DNA of 64,000 bases from the NCBI GenBank assembly GCA_902635045.1, contig CACPMT010000001.1, positions 30,993 through 94,992 on the forward strand, in the 5' to 3' direction. The notes beneath the pieces were generated by a model that searched no databases, had not been told where the DNA came from, and saw only the letters and a program-made list of their open reading frames with translations. Positions 20,580 through 26,321 of this stretch are shown here, piece by piece. Position 1 is the stretch's first letter; each line of letters begins with the position of its first letter. Origin of the DNA: an uncultured SAR86 cluster bacterium (GTDB lineage: Bacteria; Pseudomonadota; Gammaproteobacteria; Magnimaribacterales; AG-339-G14). Both the position numbers and the translations under genes were made by a program.

Positions 20580-21668
20580 TTATATCATTGAAGAAATATA
20601 TTTGCCTATTGCTAAACTGCTTGTTATTCCAGGACTCTCAATGCCTTGTAAATTTATGAAACCCTCAATTTTATGATCTTTAGGAAACTGAATAGAAAAG
20701 TCTCTCATTTTTTCTGACGGTTTTTGAATTTTTGGTCTTATTCCACAATAATCTGGATGTAACCTTTCAGGCTCCATTCCAGGCCAGTAATTATGTATTG
20801 AATGAATAAATTTTTCTTTAAGACTTTCATCGAATGCATAATCTATCTCATCAACCCAAGAAATATCAGGGCCAAATCTAAGTTGATATGACATATCAAA
20901 ACCAACATGCAAGCCTTGTGAAGATTCGCTTGGTAAAGGATAAATTAAAGCATCAAAAGGATTTACGCCAGAATATTTAAAATAATGGCCTTTGGCATAA
21001 TGAATTTTATGTGTGAACTCTTCACTCAGAGGAGAAACGCTTGAAGAAACATTTTCAGAACCCAATCCAGCTGAATTAATTAAATAAGACGATTTAATTT
21101 CGAATTCTTTTTCGTCAAAACACTTTATAGAAAAAGCTTTGCCATTTCTTTTAGCACTCAAGAAATTTGTGTTGAAAGAAACGATTCCATGATTATGCTG
21201 AATATCTCCTTCAAGCGAGGTGATGAATTCAGGAACATCTATAATTCCTGTTTCTGGAGAAAAAAGTGCTCCAGCAATATCCAATTCTGGTTCCTTTTTT
21301 TTAACTTCTTCTAAGGTGCTTTCTCTAAGATCTACTCCATTTAACTTGCCCTGCAAAAATATCTTATTTAAATTAGCCAATTCATTTTCATGAGATGCAA
21401 TAATAAATTTTCCAGTCTTTTTATGACTAATATTTTTTAATTCTGCATACTCGTACAGAAGTTTATTCCCTTCGATGCAAAATTTAGTTTTAAGTGACTC
21501 TTTTGGATAATACATTCCAGCATGAATTACGCCGGAATTTCTTGATGAAATTCCTTCCCCAGCTCTTGATTCCTGCTCTATCACGAGAACCTTTTGACCT
21601 TTTTCAGATAAATATTTTGCAATAGATAATCCTACTGCTCCCGCTCCTATAATTGCTATATCAAAAAT
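20580..21668 (-). CDS. FAD-dependent oxidoreductase (DAO / L-2-hydroxyglutarate oxidase-like); probable ATT start
   Basis: ORF track starts at GTG 21584, but the frame is open upstream and encodes the Rossmann strand and loop FDIAIIGAGAVGLSIAKYL. The only possible start after the in-frame TAA is ATT 21668, 6 nt after AGGAGG (21675-21680). Confidence 0.75.
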   Translation of the reverse strand: MFDIAIIGAGAVGLSIAKYLSEKGQKVLVIEQESRAGEGISSRNSGVIHAGMYYPKESLKTKFCIEGNKLLYEYAELKNISHKKTGKFIIASHENELANLNKIFLQGKLNGVDLRESTLEEVKKKEPELDIAGALFSPETGIIDVPEFITSLEGDIQHNHGIVSFNTNFLSAKRNGKAFSIKCFDEKEFEIKSSYLINSAGLGSENVSSSVSPLSEEFTHKIHYAKGHYFKYSGVNPFDALIYPLPSESSQGLHVGFDMSYQLRFGPDISWVDEIDYAFDESLKEKFIHSIHNYWPGMEPERLHPDYCGIRPKIQKPSEKMRDFSIQFPKDHKIEGFINLQGIESPGITSSLAIGKYISSMI

Positions 21669-21734
21669 TTTAGTCCTCCTAGAACTTTATTTTGTTTATT
21701 ATGACAAACTTATATAAAATCGTTTTCTCTTTTT

Positions 21735-21810
21735 GCCCAGATAGCTCAGTTGGTAGAGCAAAGGACTGAAAATCCTTGTGTCGGTGGTTCGATCCCACCT
21801 CTGGGCACCA
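21735..21810 (+). tRNA. tRNA-Phe (anticodon GAA), CCA encoded
   Basis: Manual cloverleaf: acceptor GCCCAGA/TCTGGGC, D stem GCTC/GAGC, anticodon stem AAGGA/TCCTT, loop CTGAAAA, T stem GGTGG/CCACC, T loop TTCGATC. Confidence 0.95.
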
Positions 21811-21838
21811 TTCTGACAGCATTCTTAAAAATAAAACT

Positions 21839-21875
21839 GGTGAACAGTTGGTGAACAGGCACTCTTCTGTTCACC
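21839..21875. repeat. GGTGAACAG motif cluster, islet 1 left end (2 direct + 1 inverted copy)
   Basis: GGTGAACAG at 21839-21847 and 21850-21858, CTGTTCACC at 21867-21875. Confidence 0.9.
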
Positions 21876-21877
21876 AA
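21848..21877 (-). terminator. 11-bp-stem hairpin immediately after the HIT stop codon (possible terminator)
   Basis: TTGGTGAACAG-gcactctt-CTGTTCACCAA. On the minus strand a T-rich run (GTTTTATTTTT) follows, but only after about 10 nt. Confidence 0.35.
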
Positions 21878-22285
21878 TTAATATGACTGTTTTTCAGGTA
21901 TTACCCCTCTTACTCCTCCTCTTGGATCATCCATATCTCCTTTTCTTCTTGGAATTAAATGAACATGACAATGCATTACAGTCTGACCCGCATCGGAACC
22001 GTCGTTAATTCCAATATTAAATCCTGTGATAAGATTGTCTTTTTCCATGAGTGCTTCTCTTTCAATTTCAAGAAGTTCAAATATTGCCTCTTTCTCATTC
22101 TTTTCTAGGTCAAAAAATGATTGAACATGTCTTTTAGGAATAAATAATGAATGCCCTTCTGTTACTGGATACAAATCCTTAAAAGAAAGAGCAAAATTAT
22201 TTTCTCTCTCTACTCTTGATTGCTCTAAATTACAAAAAATACAATCTTTCAAATTGACTCTCCAAATATCTCTGATGGTTCCCAT
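21878..22285 (-). CDS. HIT-family nucleotide hydrolase/transferase
   Basis: Histidine triad HCHVHLIPR (H105/H107/H109 in ORF-track numbering) and N-terminal CIFC. Likely true start is TTG 22252, overlapping the upstream stop as TTGA with GGAGAG 5 nt upstream (124 aa). Confidence 0.85.
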   Translation of the reverse strand: MGTIRDIWRVNLKDCIFCNLEQSRVERENNFALSFKDLYPVTEGHSLFIPKRHVQSFFDLEKNEKEAIFELLEIEREALMEKDNLITGFNIGINDGSDAGQTVMHCHVHLIPRRKGDMDDPRGGVRGVIPEKQSY

Positions 22286-23265
22286 TTTATAGGAATATGA
22301 CTTACGGAATTGTTAAACATCTTTTGTAGAAAATCTTTTCTTTCTGTATCTGTTTTGCCAGTCTGATTAATGATTGTTTCCCTTAGAGGGTGATGACTTT
22401 CTATATAAAAATTATTCCTTTTATTCAATGCTTCCAGATAGTTAATTTTAGGTATTTTTTCAAATTTTCCTCCTGATCCCCTATTACATTCACGACATGT
22501 TAAAACTAAATTCCAAATTTGATCAACCTCTGACAGTCCGTAATCTTTTAATATGTGAGGAAAGAAATGATCTACATCGCATGAATTTTCATTTCCTTGC
22601 TGAATTGAAATATGTTTGTAGCAATAAAAACATTTACTTTTTTGATAACCATTTAGAGCATCTCTTGAGGAGGTTACGTTTTGTCTTCTTTTCTTATCAT
22701 CTAATACAAAAAGACATTCATCTTCATCATCATTAATAATTTCTAATAATGATGGATTAACATTCAGTGAGATTGCTGTTTCCCAAAGATTCCATCGAGA
22801 TTCTGCCTCATTTTTTAAATTTCCATAAATGTCTTTCTCTTTTAATTTATAAAAATTGTCTGTGAGGATAATAGATTTGTTTTCTTTTCTGTTGTCTGTA
22901 AAAAATCTAGTTGTTTCTTCTCTTGCTACTATGTGAAATGCATCAATGACATTAACAAAACCCATTCTTATAGTTATTTGCTTTAATTCTTCTTCATTAA
23001 TCTCTGCATTGTTAAATCTTTTACATGCATCTAAGAACTTACTAGTTTTTGATGTAACTTGTTTTTCATTGTTTAATAAGTGATCACATATATTTTTTGC
23101 AAATGGAACTGCCAGATTTTCAATTTCTATTTCTGAACTGGAAGTATCGATCTCAAGAAGTGACTTTGCTAGAGCAAATTTATATGAGGCAACATTTCTT
23201 CCAAGCAGGATAATTGACCTCCATGAAGTATCAAGACTAGGATCTTTATCTACAAATAATTGCAT
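22249..23265 (-). CDS. HNH (beta-beta-alpha-Me, zinc-ribbon) endonuclease with unassigned ~200-aa N-terminal domain
   Basis: C212-FY-C215 ... C229-DVDH233 ... N252 ... C257-RE-C260-N261. The N-terminal region is not recognisable to me. Confidence 0.8.
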   Translation of the reverse strand: MQLFVDKDPSLDTSWRSIILLGRNVASYKFALAKSLLEIDTSSSEIEIENLAVPFAKNICDHLLNNEKQVTSKTSKFLDACKRFNNAEINEEELKQITIRMGFVNVIDAFHIVAREETTRFFTDNRKENKSIILTDNFYKLKEKDIYGNLKNEAESRWNLWETAISLNVNPSLLEIINDDEDECLFVLDDKKRRQNVTSSRDALNGYQKSKCFYCYKHISIQQGNENSCDVDHFFPHILKDYGLSEVDQIWNLVLTCRECNRGSGGKFEKIPKINYLEALNKRNNFYIESHHPLRETIINQTGKTDTERKDFLQKMFNNSVSHIPIKWEPSEIFGESI

Positions 23266-23277
23266 GTATTAAGTTTA

Positions 23278-23347
23278 TGTTCACCTAAACAAATTATAGC
23301 AACAGATTCTCAATGTTGTTGGTGAACAGGTAGGTGAACAGAAGAGT
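23278..23347. repeat. GGTGAACAG motif cluster, islet 1 right end (1 inverted + 2 direct copies)
   Basis: TGTTCACC at 23278-23285; GGTGAACAG at 23321-23329 and 23333-23341. GGTGAACAGAAGAGT (23333-23347) is the exact reverse complement of 21861-21875. Confidence 0.9.
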
Positions 23348-23390
23348 CTGTAATATGCATTCTTATGAGGTTGTTATTGTCGAGTCAAGA

Positions 23391-23436
23391 ACTGAAAATC
23401 CTTGTGTCGGTGGTTCGATTCCACCTCTGGGCACCA
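23391..23436 (+). repeat. direct repeat of tRNA-Phe 3' part (anticodon loop to CCA), att-like copy 1
   Basis: 45/46 identical to 21765-21810 (T at 23420 versus C at 21794). Confidence 0.95.
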
Positions 23437-23475
23437 ACGAGATAACATTTTTAAAACCAACTCAATAATACTAAA

Positions 23476-23492
23476 ATACCCCCAATGGGTAT
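23476..23492. promoter_or_regulatory. candidate CsoR-family operator
   Basis: ATACCC-ccaat-GGGTAT is the only GC-rich palindrome in this AT-rich leader. It overlaps ATG 23485, and a CsoR-type repressor is encoded in the same operon. Confidence 0.55.
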
Positions 23493-24084
23493 AAGAATTA
23501 TTTGTCTTTTGTCTATCATGTCGTTTGGACTTGATGCTAGACCTATATCTTACACAGGTGGTTCAACCATAATGGCGTTTTCAGATAACATAAAAAATTC
23601 TATCTACTACCATTATTCGCCATCCTATAAATACTCAATTGGGATTGAAGTTATAAGAAATAAATATTTTAAAGATAATTATTCATATGTTAGATATACA
23701 TACTTAATAAATAGAAAGAATACTGAAAACTCTCAAAGAAATTTGTATTTTCAATCTGGTGTTAGTTCAAAAGGTTTTGATGAATTTTTTTATGGTATAC
23801 ATGGAGATTGGGAAACAAGAAGATTATTTGTTGGTTTTGGAATAAAGGAAACTGAAAGAAAAATTCAAGACTATTTAGAACAATACTATCAAATAGGAGT
23901 TGCGCCCTATCTTGGTGATTATGGTGACTTGCACACATGGATAATGATTAAGGCAAAAGATAATTCTCTTGAGAATAAGTGGTCAACTTACCCTGTATTA
24001 AAATTTTTTAAAGGAAATGTTCTTATGGAATTTGGTTATAGCAAAAAAACTAAATGGGATGTTCATCTAATGTATAGATTTTGA
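23485..24084 (+). CDS. secreted small beta-barrel-like (OMP-like) protein, function unknown
   Basis: Signal-peptide-like N-terminus (MGIRIICLLSIMSFGLDA), alternating aromatic/polar strand pattern, C-terminal ...MYRF typical of OM beta-barrels. Confidence 0.4.
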   Translation: MGIRIICLLSIMSFGLDARPISYTGGSTIMAFSDNIKNSIYYHYSPSYKYSIGIEVIRNKYFKDNYSYVRYTYLINRKNTENSQRNLYFQSGVSSKGFDEFFYGIHGDWETRRLFVGFGIKETERKIQDYLEQYYQIGVAPYLGDYGDLHTWIMIKAKDNSLENKWSTYPVLKFFKGNVLMEFGYSKKTKWDVHLMYRF

Positions 24085-24494
24085 GAGGAAAAATGAAAAA
24101 TATATTATTAATTCTTATTTTTACTTCAATGGCATGGGGAGAAACCCCTCATGACAGCATGCATCATACTCATGAAGGACATGTTCATGAAGAATTTGTA
24201 GATGGTAAGAAATTAGAAGTTGATCCTGAGAGATTTGATAAATTCGTTATGGATCTTGAAGATACCCAAATTGCAATCGTGAATGTTCAAGGTATGGTGT
24301 GTGATTTTTGTGCTAGAGGTATTGAAAAAATATTTAAAAAAGACACCAATGTAAAAAAAGTAGACGTTGATCTGAGCAAAGGAAAAGTTTTAATCGCATA
24401 CAATGTTGCTCATGAAATAATCTTTGATGATATCAAGGAAAAAATTCTAATAAACGGACAAAATGCAATTGACATGAAGGTTATTAATCTTTAA
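24081..24494 (+). CDS. periplasmic heavy-metal-associated (HMA, MerP/CopZ-like) protein with His-rich N-terminus
   Basis: Signal peptide, then HDSMHHTHEGHVHEE, then HMA motif GMVCDFCARGIEK. Alternative start ATG 24093 (GAGAGG SD). Confidence 0.75.
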   Translation: MRGKMKNILLILIFTSMAWGETPHDSMHHTHEGHVHEEFVDGKKLEVDPERFDKFVMDLEDTQIAIVNVQGMVCDFCARGIEKIFKKDTNVKKVDVDLSKGKVLIAYNVAHEIIFDDIKEKILINGQNAIDMKVINL

Positions 24495-24499
24495 AAATT

Positions 24500-24865
24500 A
24501 TGCAAGATAAATCAGCAAATTTTTTATCCTTGTTTGCCTCGTCATCAACTTTAATATGTTGTGCACTTCCTTCATTATTTATTGCAGTTGGTGCAGGTGC
24601 TTCTTTTGCAAGTTTAATAACAGTCTTTCCATTTTTAATTGTCTTATCTCAATATAAATTATCTATAACAATATTTGCTTCAGTGACCATCATATTTGCT
24701 GGATATGTGAATTATAAAACTTATTATATGCCTTGCCCCACAGATCCTGAGTTAGGCAAGTTATGCATGCAAACTAGAAAACAATCAAGATATGTTTATT
24801 ACATTTCAGTTGTATTGTTTATTTTTGCTACAATATTTACTTATTTAGTTCCTAAATTCGTATGA
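24500..24865 (+). CDS. MerT-like small membrane metal transporter (CC motif in TM1)
   Basis: 121 aa, about 3-4 TM. LICCALP in TM1 and a second Cys pair PCPTDPELGKLC in a loop, the same layout as MerT. Confidence 0.5.
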   Translation: MQDKSANFLSLFASSSTLICCALPSLFIAVGAGASFASLITVFPFLIVLSQYKLSITIFASVTIIFAGYVNYKTYYMPCPTDPELGKLCMQTRKQSRYVYYISVVLFIFATIFTYLVPKFV

Positions 24866-25122
24866 AAAATCCATGCCATAAAGAAGAAATTCCTAGTCTT
24901 AACAGAATTGAGGGACAAGTTCGTGGAATTGCTAACATGATTGATGAAGAAAAGTATTGCATTGATATACTCAATCAAATCAAGGCAGTTAGAAATGCTC
25001 TTACAAGTATTGAAGGAAAAATATTAAAAAGACATATGAAAGAATGTGTTAAGGAAGCATTAAATGATCAGAAGGGTTTTGACAATAAGGTTGAGGAAAT
25101 ATTAAAAACCCTTAAAAGATAG
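24862..25122 (+). CDS. CsoR/RcnR/FrmR-family metal-sensing transcriptional repressor
   Basis: 86 aa. RIEGQVRGIANMI, and a C...H...C ligand pattern (YCIDIL ... RHMKEC). Confidence 0.8.
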   Translation: MKNPCHKEEIPSLNRIEGQVRGIANMIDEEKYCIDILNQIKAVRNALTSIEGKILKRHMKECVKEALNDQKGFDNKVEEILKTLKR

Positions 25123-25140
25123 ATTAAATTACTGGTTTCA

Positions 25141-25207
25141 TGTGTGCGCTCTTTGTATCAATGCTGTGAAGGTTTTTATCATCTTCGTGCACACAGGTGT
25201 GCACACA
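25141..25207. repeat. GTGCACACA motif cluster, islet 2 right end
   Basis: TGTGTGCGC at 25141-25149 (inverted, 8/9). GTGCACACA at 25187-25195 and 25199-25207. Confidence 0.85.
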
Positions 25208-25259
25208 AATGGTCTGAAAGGTAATACTTTAAAGGGATTATGACTTACGAACAAAGAAC

Positions 25260-25305
25260 TGAAAATCCTTGTGTCGGTGGTTCGATTCCACCTCTGGGCA
25301 CCACA
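25260..25305 (+). repeat. direct repeat of tRNA-Phe 3' part, att-like copy 2
   Basis: 46/46 identical to 23391-23436, and 45/46 to the tRNA. Confidence 0.95.
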
Positions 25306-25358: not shown

Positions 25359-26321
25359 GTGAGATTTTTTAAAAAAGAAAGAAAACTTTATCCATCCATT
25401 GAGCCGTTTGATTCAGGCTTTATCAAAAAAGGAATTCATGAAATCTATTACGAACAGTGTGGAAATCCTAAAGGCAAGCCTGCAGTTTTTTTACATGGAG
25501 GACCAGGGGGAGGAGCTGGAAAACTTTCTAGAAGATTTTTCAATCCAAAAAAATATAGAATAATTCTGTTTGATCAAAGAGGCTGCGGTAAAAGCAAACC
25601 TCATACTTGCTTAGAAGAAAATACCACTTGGCACCTAGTAGATGATATTGAATCTATTAGAAAAAAACTACAAATAGAAAAATGGTTAGTTTTCGGAGGA
25701 TCTTGGGGAAGCACTCTTGCTCTAGCTTATGCTCAAAAACACCCTGAGCATGTTTCTGAACTTATTCTAAGAGGTATTTTTATGCTTAGAGAAAAGGAAC
25801 TCAAGTGGTTCTATCAGTATGGAGCAAGTGAAATATATCCTGAAGCTTGGCAAGGATTTATAAATGAAATTCCTGAAGAGGAAAGATTTGATCTAATTGA
25901 TGCCTATAGAAAAATTTTTAATAGCAAGGATAAAGAAAAAAAGCTGTCTGCTGCTAAGGCTTGGTCTAAGTGGGAAGCATCTGCAAGCTATATTAATCAT
26001 AACCCAAGCGCTGTAAAAGATTCTGTAAATGCAGAGTTTGCTTTGGCATTTGCGCTCATTGAAAACCACTATTTTGTAAATAAAGGTTTTTTGGATTACG
26101 AAAATCAACTTTTAGATAACATAGATCTTATCAGGCATATTCCAGCAATAATAATCCAAGGAAGATATGATGTGGTTTGTCCTTCCACCACTGCATACGA
26201 ACTTTATTCAAAATGGCCTGAAGCTGAACTTAAAATTGCACCTTTCTCTGGACACTCCGCCTTTGAAAAAGAAATTACCGATCTACTAGTCGATGCTACA
26301 GATATTTTTGGCAAGAACTAA
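25359..26321 (+). CDS. pip: prolyl aminopeptidase (proline iminopeptidase)
   Basis: HGGPGGG and GGSWGSTLAL motifs. GTG start. Confidence 0.88.
   Translation: MRFFKKERKLYPSIEPFDSGFIKKGIHEIYYEQCGNPKGKPAVFLHGGPGGGAGKLSRRFFNPKKYRIILFDQRGCGKSKPHTCLEENTTWHLVDDIESIRKKLQIEKWLVFGGSWGSTLALAYAQKHPEHVSELILRGIFMLREKELKWFYQYGASEIYPEAWQGFINEIPEEERFDLIDAYRKIFNSKDKEKKLSAAKAWSKWEASASYINHNPSAVKDSVNAEFALAFALIENHYFVNKGFLDYENQLLDNIDLIRHIPAIIIQGRYDVVCPSTTAYELYSKWPEAELKIAPFSGHSAFEKEITDLLVDATDIFGKN

Follow-up and report, generated by a model that had tools for sequence, protein, structure and literature searches.

Two islets without an integrase of their own stand in tandem at the tRNA-Phe gene of a SAR86 bacterium, bounded by copies of the tRNA 3' segment

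Additive flexible genomic islands at tRNA genes, with recurring repeats of the tRNA 3' end and with metal and defence cassettes, are known from Alteromonas (PMC4119200) and 'Ca. Methylopumilus' (PMC10872708; see also PMC3698932). Cis-mobilizable elements (CIMEs) are related to integrative and conjugative elements (ICEs), are flanked by attachment (att) sites and lack a recombinase (PMC5704250; ICEberg 2.0, PMC6323972). The tycheposons of Prochlorococcus are integrase-carrying tRNA elements that occur in tandem with partial tRNAs between them, leave degenerate remnants and reportedly have relatives in Gammaproteobacteria; the text that describes them does not discuss arm sites or trans-mobilised cassettes (bioRxiv 10.1101/2020.12.28.424599). 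Here we analyse a 64-kb stretch of DNA from a SAR86 gammaproteobacterium (the window, to which all coordinates refer), in which two small islets stand in tandem at a tRNA-Phe gene: islet 1, encoding a HIT-family hydrolase and an HNH endonuclease-domain protein, and islet 2, carrying a metal operon (Table 1). SAR86 is among the most abundant uncultured bacterial groups of the surface ocean, and its streamlined genome offers few obvious routes of gene exchange. Neither this locus nor these elements in SAR86 were described in any paper that we found. The data presented below make it likely that the locus is an additive island produced by two successive site-specific integrations at the 3' part of tRNA-Phe, and that the islets came without an integrase of their own.

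The only tRNA gene of the window is tRNA-Phe(GAA), found by ARAGORN with Rfam in agreement; at a relaxed threshold Rfam again returned the tRNA alone, two sub-threshold matches being noise. An earlier note, made from the sequence alone, had claimed that the segment of this tRNA from the anticodon loop to CCA recurs twice downstream. The repeat finder confirmed a three-copy direct-repeat family of this 46-nt block (ACTGAAAATCC...GGGCACCA). The first two intervals given in the note were right, and the third, which it had placed at 25260-25305, lies 2 nt away at 25258-25303. No fourth copy was detected in the 64-kb window with up to 8 mismatches allowed. Copies 2 and 3 are identical across 50 nt (AAGA plus the 46 nt), and one T-loop base sets the tRNA apart from them (C at 21794 versus T at 23420 and T at 25287). 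The note had reported both facts correctly, except that it put the last of these bases at 25289. The degenerate likeness that it described 5' of the copies, before ACTG, is also present (GAGCAAAGG / GAGTCAAGA / GAACAAAGA). A 46-mer cannot occur three times by chance. For islet 1, copy 2 is the attR core, and for islet 2 it is the attL core; copy 3 is the original 3' end of the host tRNA, displaced by the insertions.

We then compared the locus with its counterparts in related genomes, using as query the pip-like hydrolase encoded downstream of copy 3. This gave 590 relatives, from which 80 loci were taken, and occupancy was described for 50 SAR86 loci. The nearest pip relatives were SAR86 single-cell genomes and metagenome-assembled genomes, with 82-94% identity of the pip protein. 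Empty sites were found in L033, L029, L030, L013 and L046, where the full tRNA-Phe lies about 55 nt from pip, a spacing equal to that between copy 3 and pip in the window; an empty allele in the window's own population would have the full tRNA-Phe joined to CAAAATTTTAATCC.... The metal islet occurs by itself in L017, and in L003 and L005 it adjoins pip next to another, tRNA-proximal islet. Other loci carry a type II restriction-modification (R-M) islet (L004), a type III R-M islet (L051) or other cargo (L018, L050, L058, L070). Two or three copies of the tRNA segment are also present in L003, L004, L005, L017, L018, L050, L051, L058, L070, L224 and L225, and the same tRNA-Phe borders variable DNA in dozens of SAR86 genomes. 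In blastn alignments with the empty locus L033, homology stops at 21810 and restarts inside copy 3; with L003 it restarts at copy 2. The boundaries of gene content therefore match the att copies to the base.

Variation was also found within one species. An exact-protein look-up of the repressor of the metal islet gave eight SAR86 genomes (L241-L248) of the species of L005, with flanks 94.6-100% identical; this comparison concerns L005's species (L241-L248 and L005), not the window's own. All of these genomes retain the metal islet at its position. In L241, L245, L247 and L248 nothing occupies the tRNA-proximal slot; L242, L243/L244 and L246 carry three different islets there, with R-M genes or other cargo, and L005 carries a fourth. 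The slot thus shows presence/absence polymorphism within a species, at the position that tandem accretion predicts to be the most recent. In the same species, the metal islet is succeeded by a unit of about 133 nt that has no cargo (L241 8443-8575; also L243, L245 and L248). It consists of the start of a left end module, one or two ATGAACAC arm repeats, the spacer of a right end module and a truncated att copy. Its appearance is that of a scar left when the DNA between left and right arm repeats was deleted, or of an integrated bare attP. L005 has a 55-nt deletion.

These results bear on another explanation of the repeats, namely that the extra 3' segments are tRNA pseudogene duplications or an assembly artefact, with no horizontal transfer. 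Nothing beyond the presence of the repeats speaks for it. The same architecture recurs in many independently assembled single-cell genomes and metagenomes, gene-content boundaries fall on the repeats, empty sites exist, and in relatives integrase genes adjoin the same partial copy (see below). Given the empty sites, the exact breakpoints and the L241-L248 polymorphism, we rejected this explanation as extremely improbable. The earlier note had named a fixed arrangement in all relatives, or repeats unrelated to gene-content boundaries, as grounds for abandoning its tandem-islet reading. Empty, single-islet and alternative alleles were found instead, and the islets are bounded by the repeats to the base.

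The note had also suggested that islet 2 arrived first and islet 1 later, bringing the C variant. Three facts agree with this order: the variable slot is the one next to the tRNA, T stands in the tRNA of the close relatives L003 and L033, and islets of the GGTGAACAG class lie mostly in C-type att contexts. We infer the arrival of islet 2 before islet 1 from these facts. Site-specific integration at the tRNA explains at once the exact boundaries, the variable proximal slot and the C variant of the functional tRNA.

We next searched for a recombinase. Pfam assigned the six open reading frames (ORFs) of 21811-25257 to HIT, HNH_4, no family, HMA, MerT-like and Trns_repr_metal, and neither Pfam nor NCBIfam revealed an integrase or transposase among them. 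A hidden Markov model (HMM) built from 80 integrases had no match in the six-frame translation of the entire 64-kb window (best E 0.36), nor did tblastn with the integrase of a related element, L010, find one in the window. The lack of an integrase or transposase in 21.8-25.3 kb, as the note had claimed, is therefore borne out and extends to the 64 kb.

Inspection of the sequence around every att copy revealed short repeats just inside the ends of the islets, the repeat unit varying from islet to islet. In islet 1, the left module starts with TTCTGACAGCATTCTT, after which come two direct arm repeats (GTGAAC cores: 21840-21845, 21851-21856) and an inverted GTTCAC at 21869-21874. In the right module, an inverted GTTCAC (23279-23284) precedes a direct pair of GGTGAACAG repeats, whose GTGAAC cores lie at 23322-23327 and 23334-23339; a conserved spacer of about 50 nt, ending ...TCGAGTCAAGA, then leads into the core. 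Circularisation of islet 1 would join the two modules in a symmetric attP of about 240 bp, in the order inverted, direct, direct, core, direct, direct, inverted (GTGAAC). The predicted junction reads ...TCGAGTCAAGA + core + TTCTGACAGCATTC..., with HNH on one side and HIT on the other. With a core identical to the tRNA, arm repeats on both sides and an arm-binding domain (PF13356) in related integrases, this arrangement has the layout of an attP of the P4/lambda type.

The matching of the two ends is not restricted to islet 1. Among 25 non-identical islets with both ends visible, 12 have the repeated 7-mer of their right end also at their own left end. In a permutation test the mean number of such matches was 4.25, and none of 5000 permutations reached 12. 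At least five independent repeat classes show the left/right match. One metagenome scan with the right-arm signature of islet 1 gave 12 contigs, all of which carry the right module of islet 1 with att, and also the left module wherever the left end is visible. Their cargo consists of HIT and HNH in two contigs, the cargo of L005 in one and unrelated ORFs in the others. Alignment of the 12 contigs showed that the end modules are about 70-125 nt long and that homology ends sharply at the module edges. Tandem arrays are common. Islet 1 itself was recovered from independent metagenomes with 99.6% (L001, L002), 98.3% (L223) and 94.3% (L219) identity, and in L223 it has another downstream neighbour. 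An exact-protein look-up of HNH returned two 1.4-kb Logan contigs only, and those of pip and of HIT returned no record. An islet in L220 (200-1592) is a hybrid, with left arms of the TTTGAACAC type and right arms of the GGTGAACAG type, which suggests recombination between islets of different classes.

Integrase-bearing elements exist at the same site. L010 encodes a 461-aa tyrosine recombinase (PF00589, E 6e-19), which adjoins a partial att copy and is directed outward from it; GTGTGAACC repeats separate the gene from att. The family of this integrase combines PF13356 (Arm-DNA-bind_3) with PF00589, and we therefore regard it as P4-like. L213 contains a complete 5.6-kb element (tRNA-Phe, cargo, integrase P0006 and partial att) with GTAATCA arms at both ends. 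Integrase P0009, in L226-233, has AAGTCATCA arms and is followed in L229 and L230 by another unit with the same arms. P0003 (L237) and P0004 (L239) have ACGAACCT and CGTAAGCATA arms, respectively. P0002 (L240), 72% identical to the L010 integrase, has GTGAACA/GTGAACC arms, whose core is shared with the arm repeats of islet 1. All these elements, that of L010 included, have the same tRNA-Phe att and the same layout, each with its own arm unit. In islet 1, the position and orientation of HNH correspond to those of the integrase in the autonomous elements, as seen by comparison with L010 and L213.

Members of the same integrase family were also observed beside a tRNA-Met(CAT)-like 3' segment, GGACTCATAATCC...CCCACCA (L204 9778-10000, L210 1-131, L234 5860-6120). 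They are 43-46% identical to the L010 integrase and show the same arm-repeat layout, with units GGTCATCA, AGTCACCA and AGTTATCA; the layout beside this segment is present in L204/205, L210/211 and L234-236. SAR86-like DNA thus contains at least two tRNA-type cores that the family targets. P0017 and P0037 (L204-L212) and P0033 (L234-L236) do not stand at tRNA-Phe; lying beside the tRNA-Met-like 3' segment, they are members of the family with another target.

From these elements a mechanism can be proposed. The incoming element would be a circle with cargo and an attP, in which the 46-nt core identical to the tRNA lies between arm-type repeats. The enzyme would be a P4-like tyrosine integrase with arm-binding and catalytic domains, supplied in trans. 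On integration next to the tRNA, the core of the element would rebuild the tRNA 3' end and push the older 3' end downstream. Since islet 1 retains a complete split attP in cis, it should be mobilisable in trans: a cognate integrase from an autonomous relative would be able to excise and re-integrate it. The candidate helper is the L010/L240 integrase class, with its own GTGAACC/GTGAACA arms. Islet 1 is accordingly a CIME-like element whose movement would depend on a helper integrase.

Several observations weigh against this mechanism. No integrase was found with exactly GGTGAACAG or GTGCACACA arms, the latter being those of islet 2, and the 12 contigs with arms of the islet 1 type encode no integrase of the L010 family. 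The absence of a recombinase covers 64 kb of the host genome, and a helper may lie elsewhere in the same cell. Neither an excised circle nor an attP junction was observed, and an att 42-mer had no match in viral contigs. Several islets in other genomes (L003a, L058b and L070) are devoid of any arm repeats, which shows that arm decay occurs. Islet 2, which provides the strongest evidence of recent transfer, has no left arm, so that it may be moved by something other than the canonical arm-dependent pathway. Lastly, we infer the binding of arm repeats by an integrase from their position, the matching of the ends and the domain content of relatives only; the crossover position and mobilisation in trans are likewise deduced.

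Two further searches in viral contigs were made. Arm pairs of the form GGTGAACAG(N2-3)GGTGAACAG gave more than 120 matches, which were discarded as unrelated, since the DNA around all of them has about 50% GC and lacks a nearby att core. The L010 integrase had one weak match (L083, 30% identity), which is uninformative.

The same observations may be read differently. The islets could be decayed, immobile remnants of autonomous elements, exchanged now by homologous recombination only, through RecA-dependent Campbell-type or double-crossover events at the 46-50-nt att repeats or the core flanks after vesicle- or transduction-type uptake. The spread of islet 2 between species without a left arm agrees with this, as do the arm-less islets and the hybrid arms of L220. 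The 133-nt cargo-less unit of L241 and the 55-nt deletion of L005 resemble products of recombination between repeats and, together with the arm-less islets, are signs of repeat-mediated deletion. Integrases are also rare at the site: of the right ends visible in the SAR86 genome loci, about 1 in 17 has one. However, complete, symmetric and end-matched arms in many integrase-less islets, with sharp module edges, would not be expected under neutral decay. Neither the window nor the 12 related contigs contain fragments of an integrase pseudogene, and the breakpoints always fall at att copies. We therefore hold it unlikely that the islets are remnants of this kind, and favour successive site-specific integrations.

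Table 1. Features of the tRNA-Phe locus, with positions in the window.
Feature	Position	Strand	Basis or remark
Functional tRNA-Phe(GAA)	21735-21810	+	ARAGORN; Rfam RF00005, 72.9 bits; repeat family D1
att copy 1, attL core	21765-21810	+	tRNA 3' 46 nt, C variant at 21794
Islet 1 left (P') module	21811-21876	+	kept in 6 other islets with different cargo
HIT-family hydrolase, 135 aa	21878-22285	-	Pfam PF01230, E 1.6e-16; PADLOC ThsC-like HIT, E 1.7e-9
HNH endonuclease-domain protein, 338 aa	22249-23265	-	Pfam HNH_4, E 7.6e-7; weak PtuB-like PADLOC matches
Islet 1 right (P) module	23279-23390	+	also kept where cargo is unrelated (13 other islets)
att copy 2, partial tRNA-Phe 3' segment, T variant	23391-23436	+	repeat family; L003 homology restarts here
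Palindrome ATACCCCCAATGGGTAT, perfect arms	23476-23492	.	overlaps predicted ATG (23485) of first metal gene
Islet 2 cargo operon, four genes	23485-25122	+	Pfam; NCBIfam
199-aa protein, hydrophobic N-terminus, no Pfam family	23485-24084	+	
HMA/CopZ-like protein	24081-24494	+	Pfam HMA
MerT-like membrane protein	24500-24865	+	Pfam
CsoR/RicR-family metal-sensing repressor	24862-25122	+	Pfam Trns_repr_metal
Islet 2 right (P) module	25141-25257	+	same module in GTGCACA-class islets of L243, L244, L246
att copy 3, T variant, 55 nt upstream of pip	25258-25303	+	flank layout identical to L033 empty site
pip-like alpha/beta hydrolase	25359-26321	+	Pfam; conserved downstream core neighbour marking empty site

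Islet 2 differs from islet 1 in its arms and in its history. Its right module contains an inverted TGTGTGCGC (25141-25149), direct GTGCACACA repeats at 25187-25195 and 25199-25207, and a spacer ending ...CGAACAAAGA. This is the right-end layout of islet 1 with a different repeat unit. No arm repeat was detected at the left end, where the 48 nt from the att copy to the first gene are filled by ATACCCCCAATGGGTAT; complete GTGCACA-class islets with two arms are present in L243, L244 and L246. When the window was compared with L003, islet 2 was 96.5% identical versus 89.2% for pip; with L005 the values were 97.6% and 76.7%. In flank-compared relatives overall, islet 2 thus stands at about 96.5-98% versus 77-89% for pip. 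With L241, of L005's species, identity of islet 2 reached 99.6% over 1821 nt, and the flanks gave no megablast match. Because the islet is 99.6% identical between species whose pip is about 77% identical, the metal islet has crossed species boundaries very recently, as an att-bounded unit. Since it has arm repeats at the right end only, the canonical pathway is a less certain means of mobilisation for it than for islet 1. It may have been excised with its right arm only or together with a neighbouring GTGCACA-class islet, or exchanged by RecA at the 46-50-nt repeats.

As for the cargo of islet 2, the first protein of the operon is possibly secreted, to judge by its N-terminus. The palindrome ATACCCCCAATGGGTAT is conserved in the other copies of the islet (L003, L005, L017, L241-249) and is a putative operator, on which the CsoR/RicR-type repressor, the product of the last gene of the operon, would act.

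The HIT and HNH genes of islet 1 overlap by 37 nt. They are also found together in L219 (235-3822), with three further genes inside the same end modules. According to PADLOC the pair fits no known defence system, the matches being weak and at the level of domains. It may be an uncharacterised defence or toxin pair, because other islets at the same site carry R-M systems. R-M cargo was noted in L004, L036, L051 and L242-L244, and an integrase-bearing element in L210 (1515-8408) and L211 has cargo resembling a defence island, with a C5 DNA methylase, DUF4420, Z1 and HATPase_c_3. Defence genes look enriched at these att sites.

Some features of the region between the arm repeats and the HNH start codon were also recorded. 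On the minus strand, 23266-23320 contains TGCTATAAT, an extended -10 motif, with the inverted arm repeat just downstream, and ATTATA is kept at this position in several islets of the islet 1 class. In 11 of the 12 related contigs the cargo gene adjoining the right module points leftward, as does the integrase in autonomous elements. A scan of the islets for consensus promoters and terminators gave 20 matches versus 19.1 expected in shuffled sequence, and we therefore claim no promoter.

Two observations concern the surroundings. The 1.7 kb visible upstream of the partial att in L016 (1-1694) contains small ORFs, among them one that weakly matches a replication-associated protein (REP_ORF2-G2P, E 0.007) and a fragment of an MvaI/BcnI restriction enzyme; a larger element, or one of a different kind, may end here at this site. 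Upstream of the tRNA, the gene of an FAD-dependent oxidoreductase (DAO family) on the minus strand starts at 21584 by the ATG/GTG/TTG rule. A dinucleotide-binding motif (IAIIGAGAVG) is encoded upstream of 21584, within 21585-21680 (minus strand), after GGAGG and without a canonical in-frame start. Translation probably begins at a non-canonical codon such as ATT.

How does this locus compare with the described systems? With the additive islands (PMC4119200, PMC3698932, PMC10872708) it shares a conserved tRNA target, gain and loss of cassettes between strains (here from L241-L248 and L005), tRNA 3' repeats between cassettes, metal-resistance and defence cargo, and an island position conserved across species. 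It differs in its SAR86 host, its tRNA-Phe target and the very small size of its cassettes (0.6-6 kb). Moreover, the split attP with arm repeats resolved here for each cassette is not described in these three papers.

With the Streptococcus CIMEs the islets share att flanks, the lack of a recombination module (for both islets, from the Pfam scan, the integrase HMM and tblastn), tandem accretion with relatives having the same att, and a proposed mobilisation in trans. Islet 1 is flanked by cores and both arms, islet 2 by cores and the right arm only. As for the cognate integrase of a relative, the same att has integrases in other SAR86 DNA, and the arms of L240 share the core of those of islet 1; no integrase with identical arms was found. 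CIMEs, however, are tied to conjugative elements, accretion being followed by conjugative transfer, and conjugation genes were seen neither in the islets of the window nor in those parts of the SAR86 relatives that were visible. The feature in the window has all the tested hallmarks of an additive island and most of those of a CIME.

With tycheposons there is a common background of a streamlined marine host, tRNA targeting by a tyrosine recombinase, niche or defence cargo, tandems with partial tRNAs and scattered remnants. Whereas tycheposons are defined by their own integrase, usually with a replication module, the islets of the window have neither, although the partial tRNA repeats at the tRNA are present. 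The SAR86 integrases also differ in carrying a P4-type arm-binding domain.

The likeness to integron cassettes is one of function only: small, promoter-poor cargo units with their own recombination site are stacked in arrays, and the integrase lies elsewhere. Here there are no attC hairpins and no IntI; a tRNA core and arm sites make up the recombination site, a double-stranded attP. A related integrase scored 17 bits on the integron-integrase model, for which the cutoff is 265, and the locus is not an integron.

What is added here is the attP architecture, the arm classes common to cargo-only islets and P4-like integrases, and the near-identity of the metal islet across species. Because the phenomenon is known from Alteromonas, Methylopumilus and Prochlorococcus, these results refine existing knowledge and do not overturn it.

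More tentatively, and with less than even confidence, we propose that SAR86 possesses a somewhat integron-like cassette system at tRNA-Phe and, with the same integrase family, at the tRNA-Met-like site. In it, most units would be tiny cargo-only cassettes with a complete attP of about 240 bp, standing in arrays and shuffled, within and between species, by rare autonomous elements with a P4-like integrase of matching specificity. The arm-specificity classes of this proposal are GTGAAC, TGAACAC, TTAACAC, GTGCACA, GTCATCA and others. The arm-repeat classes and the integrase family provide substrates for the biochemistry of trans-mobilisation and sequence tags for cassettes in metagenomes. The locus gives a concrete, testable view of the swapping of defence (HNH/HIT, R-M) and metal genes in units bounded by the 3' end of tRNA-Phe. 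If the proposal is true, trans-mobilised cassettes, and not self-sufficient elements, would be the main currency of gene flow in SAR86.

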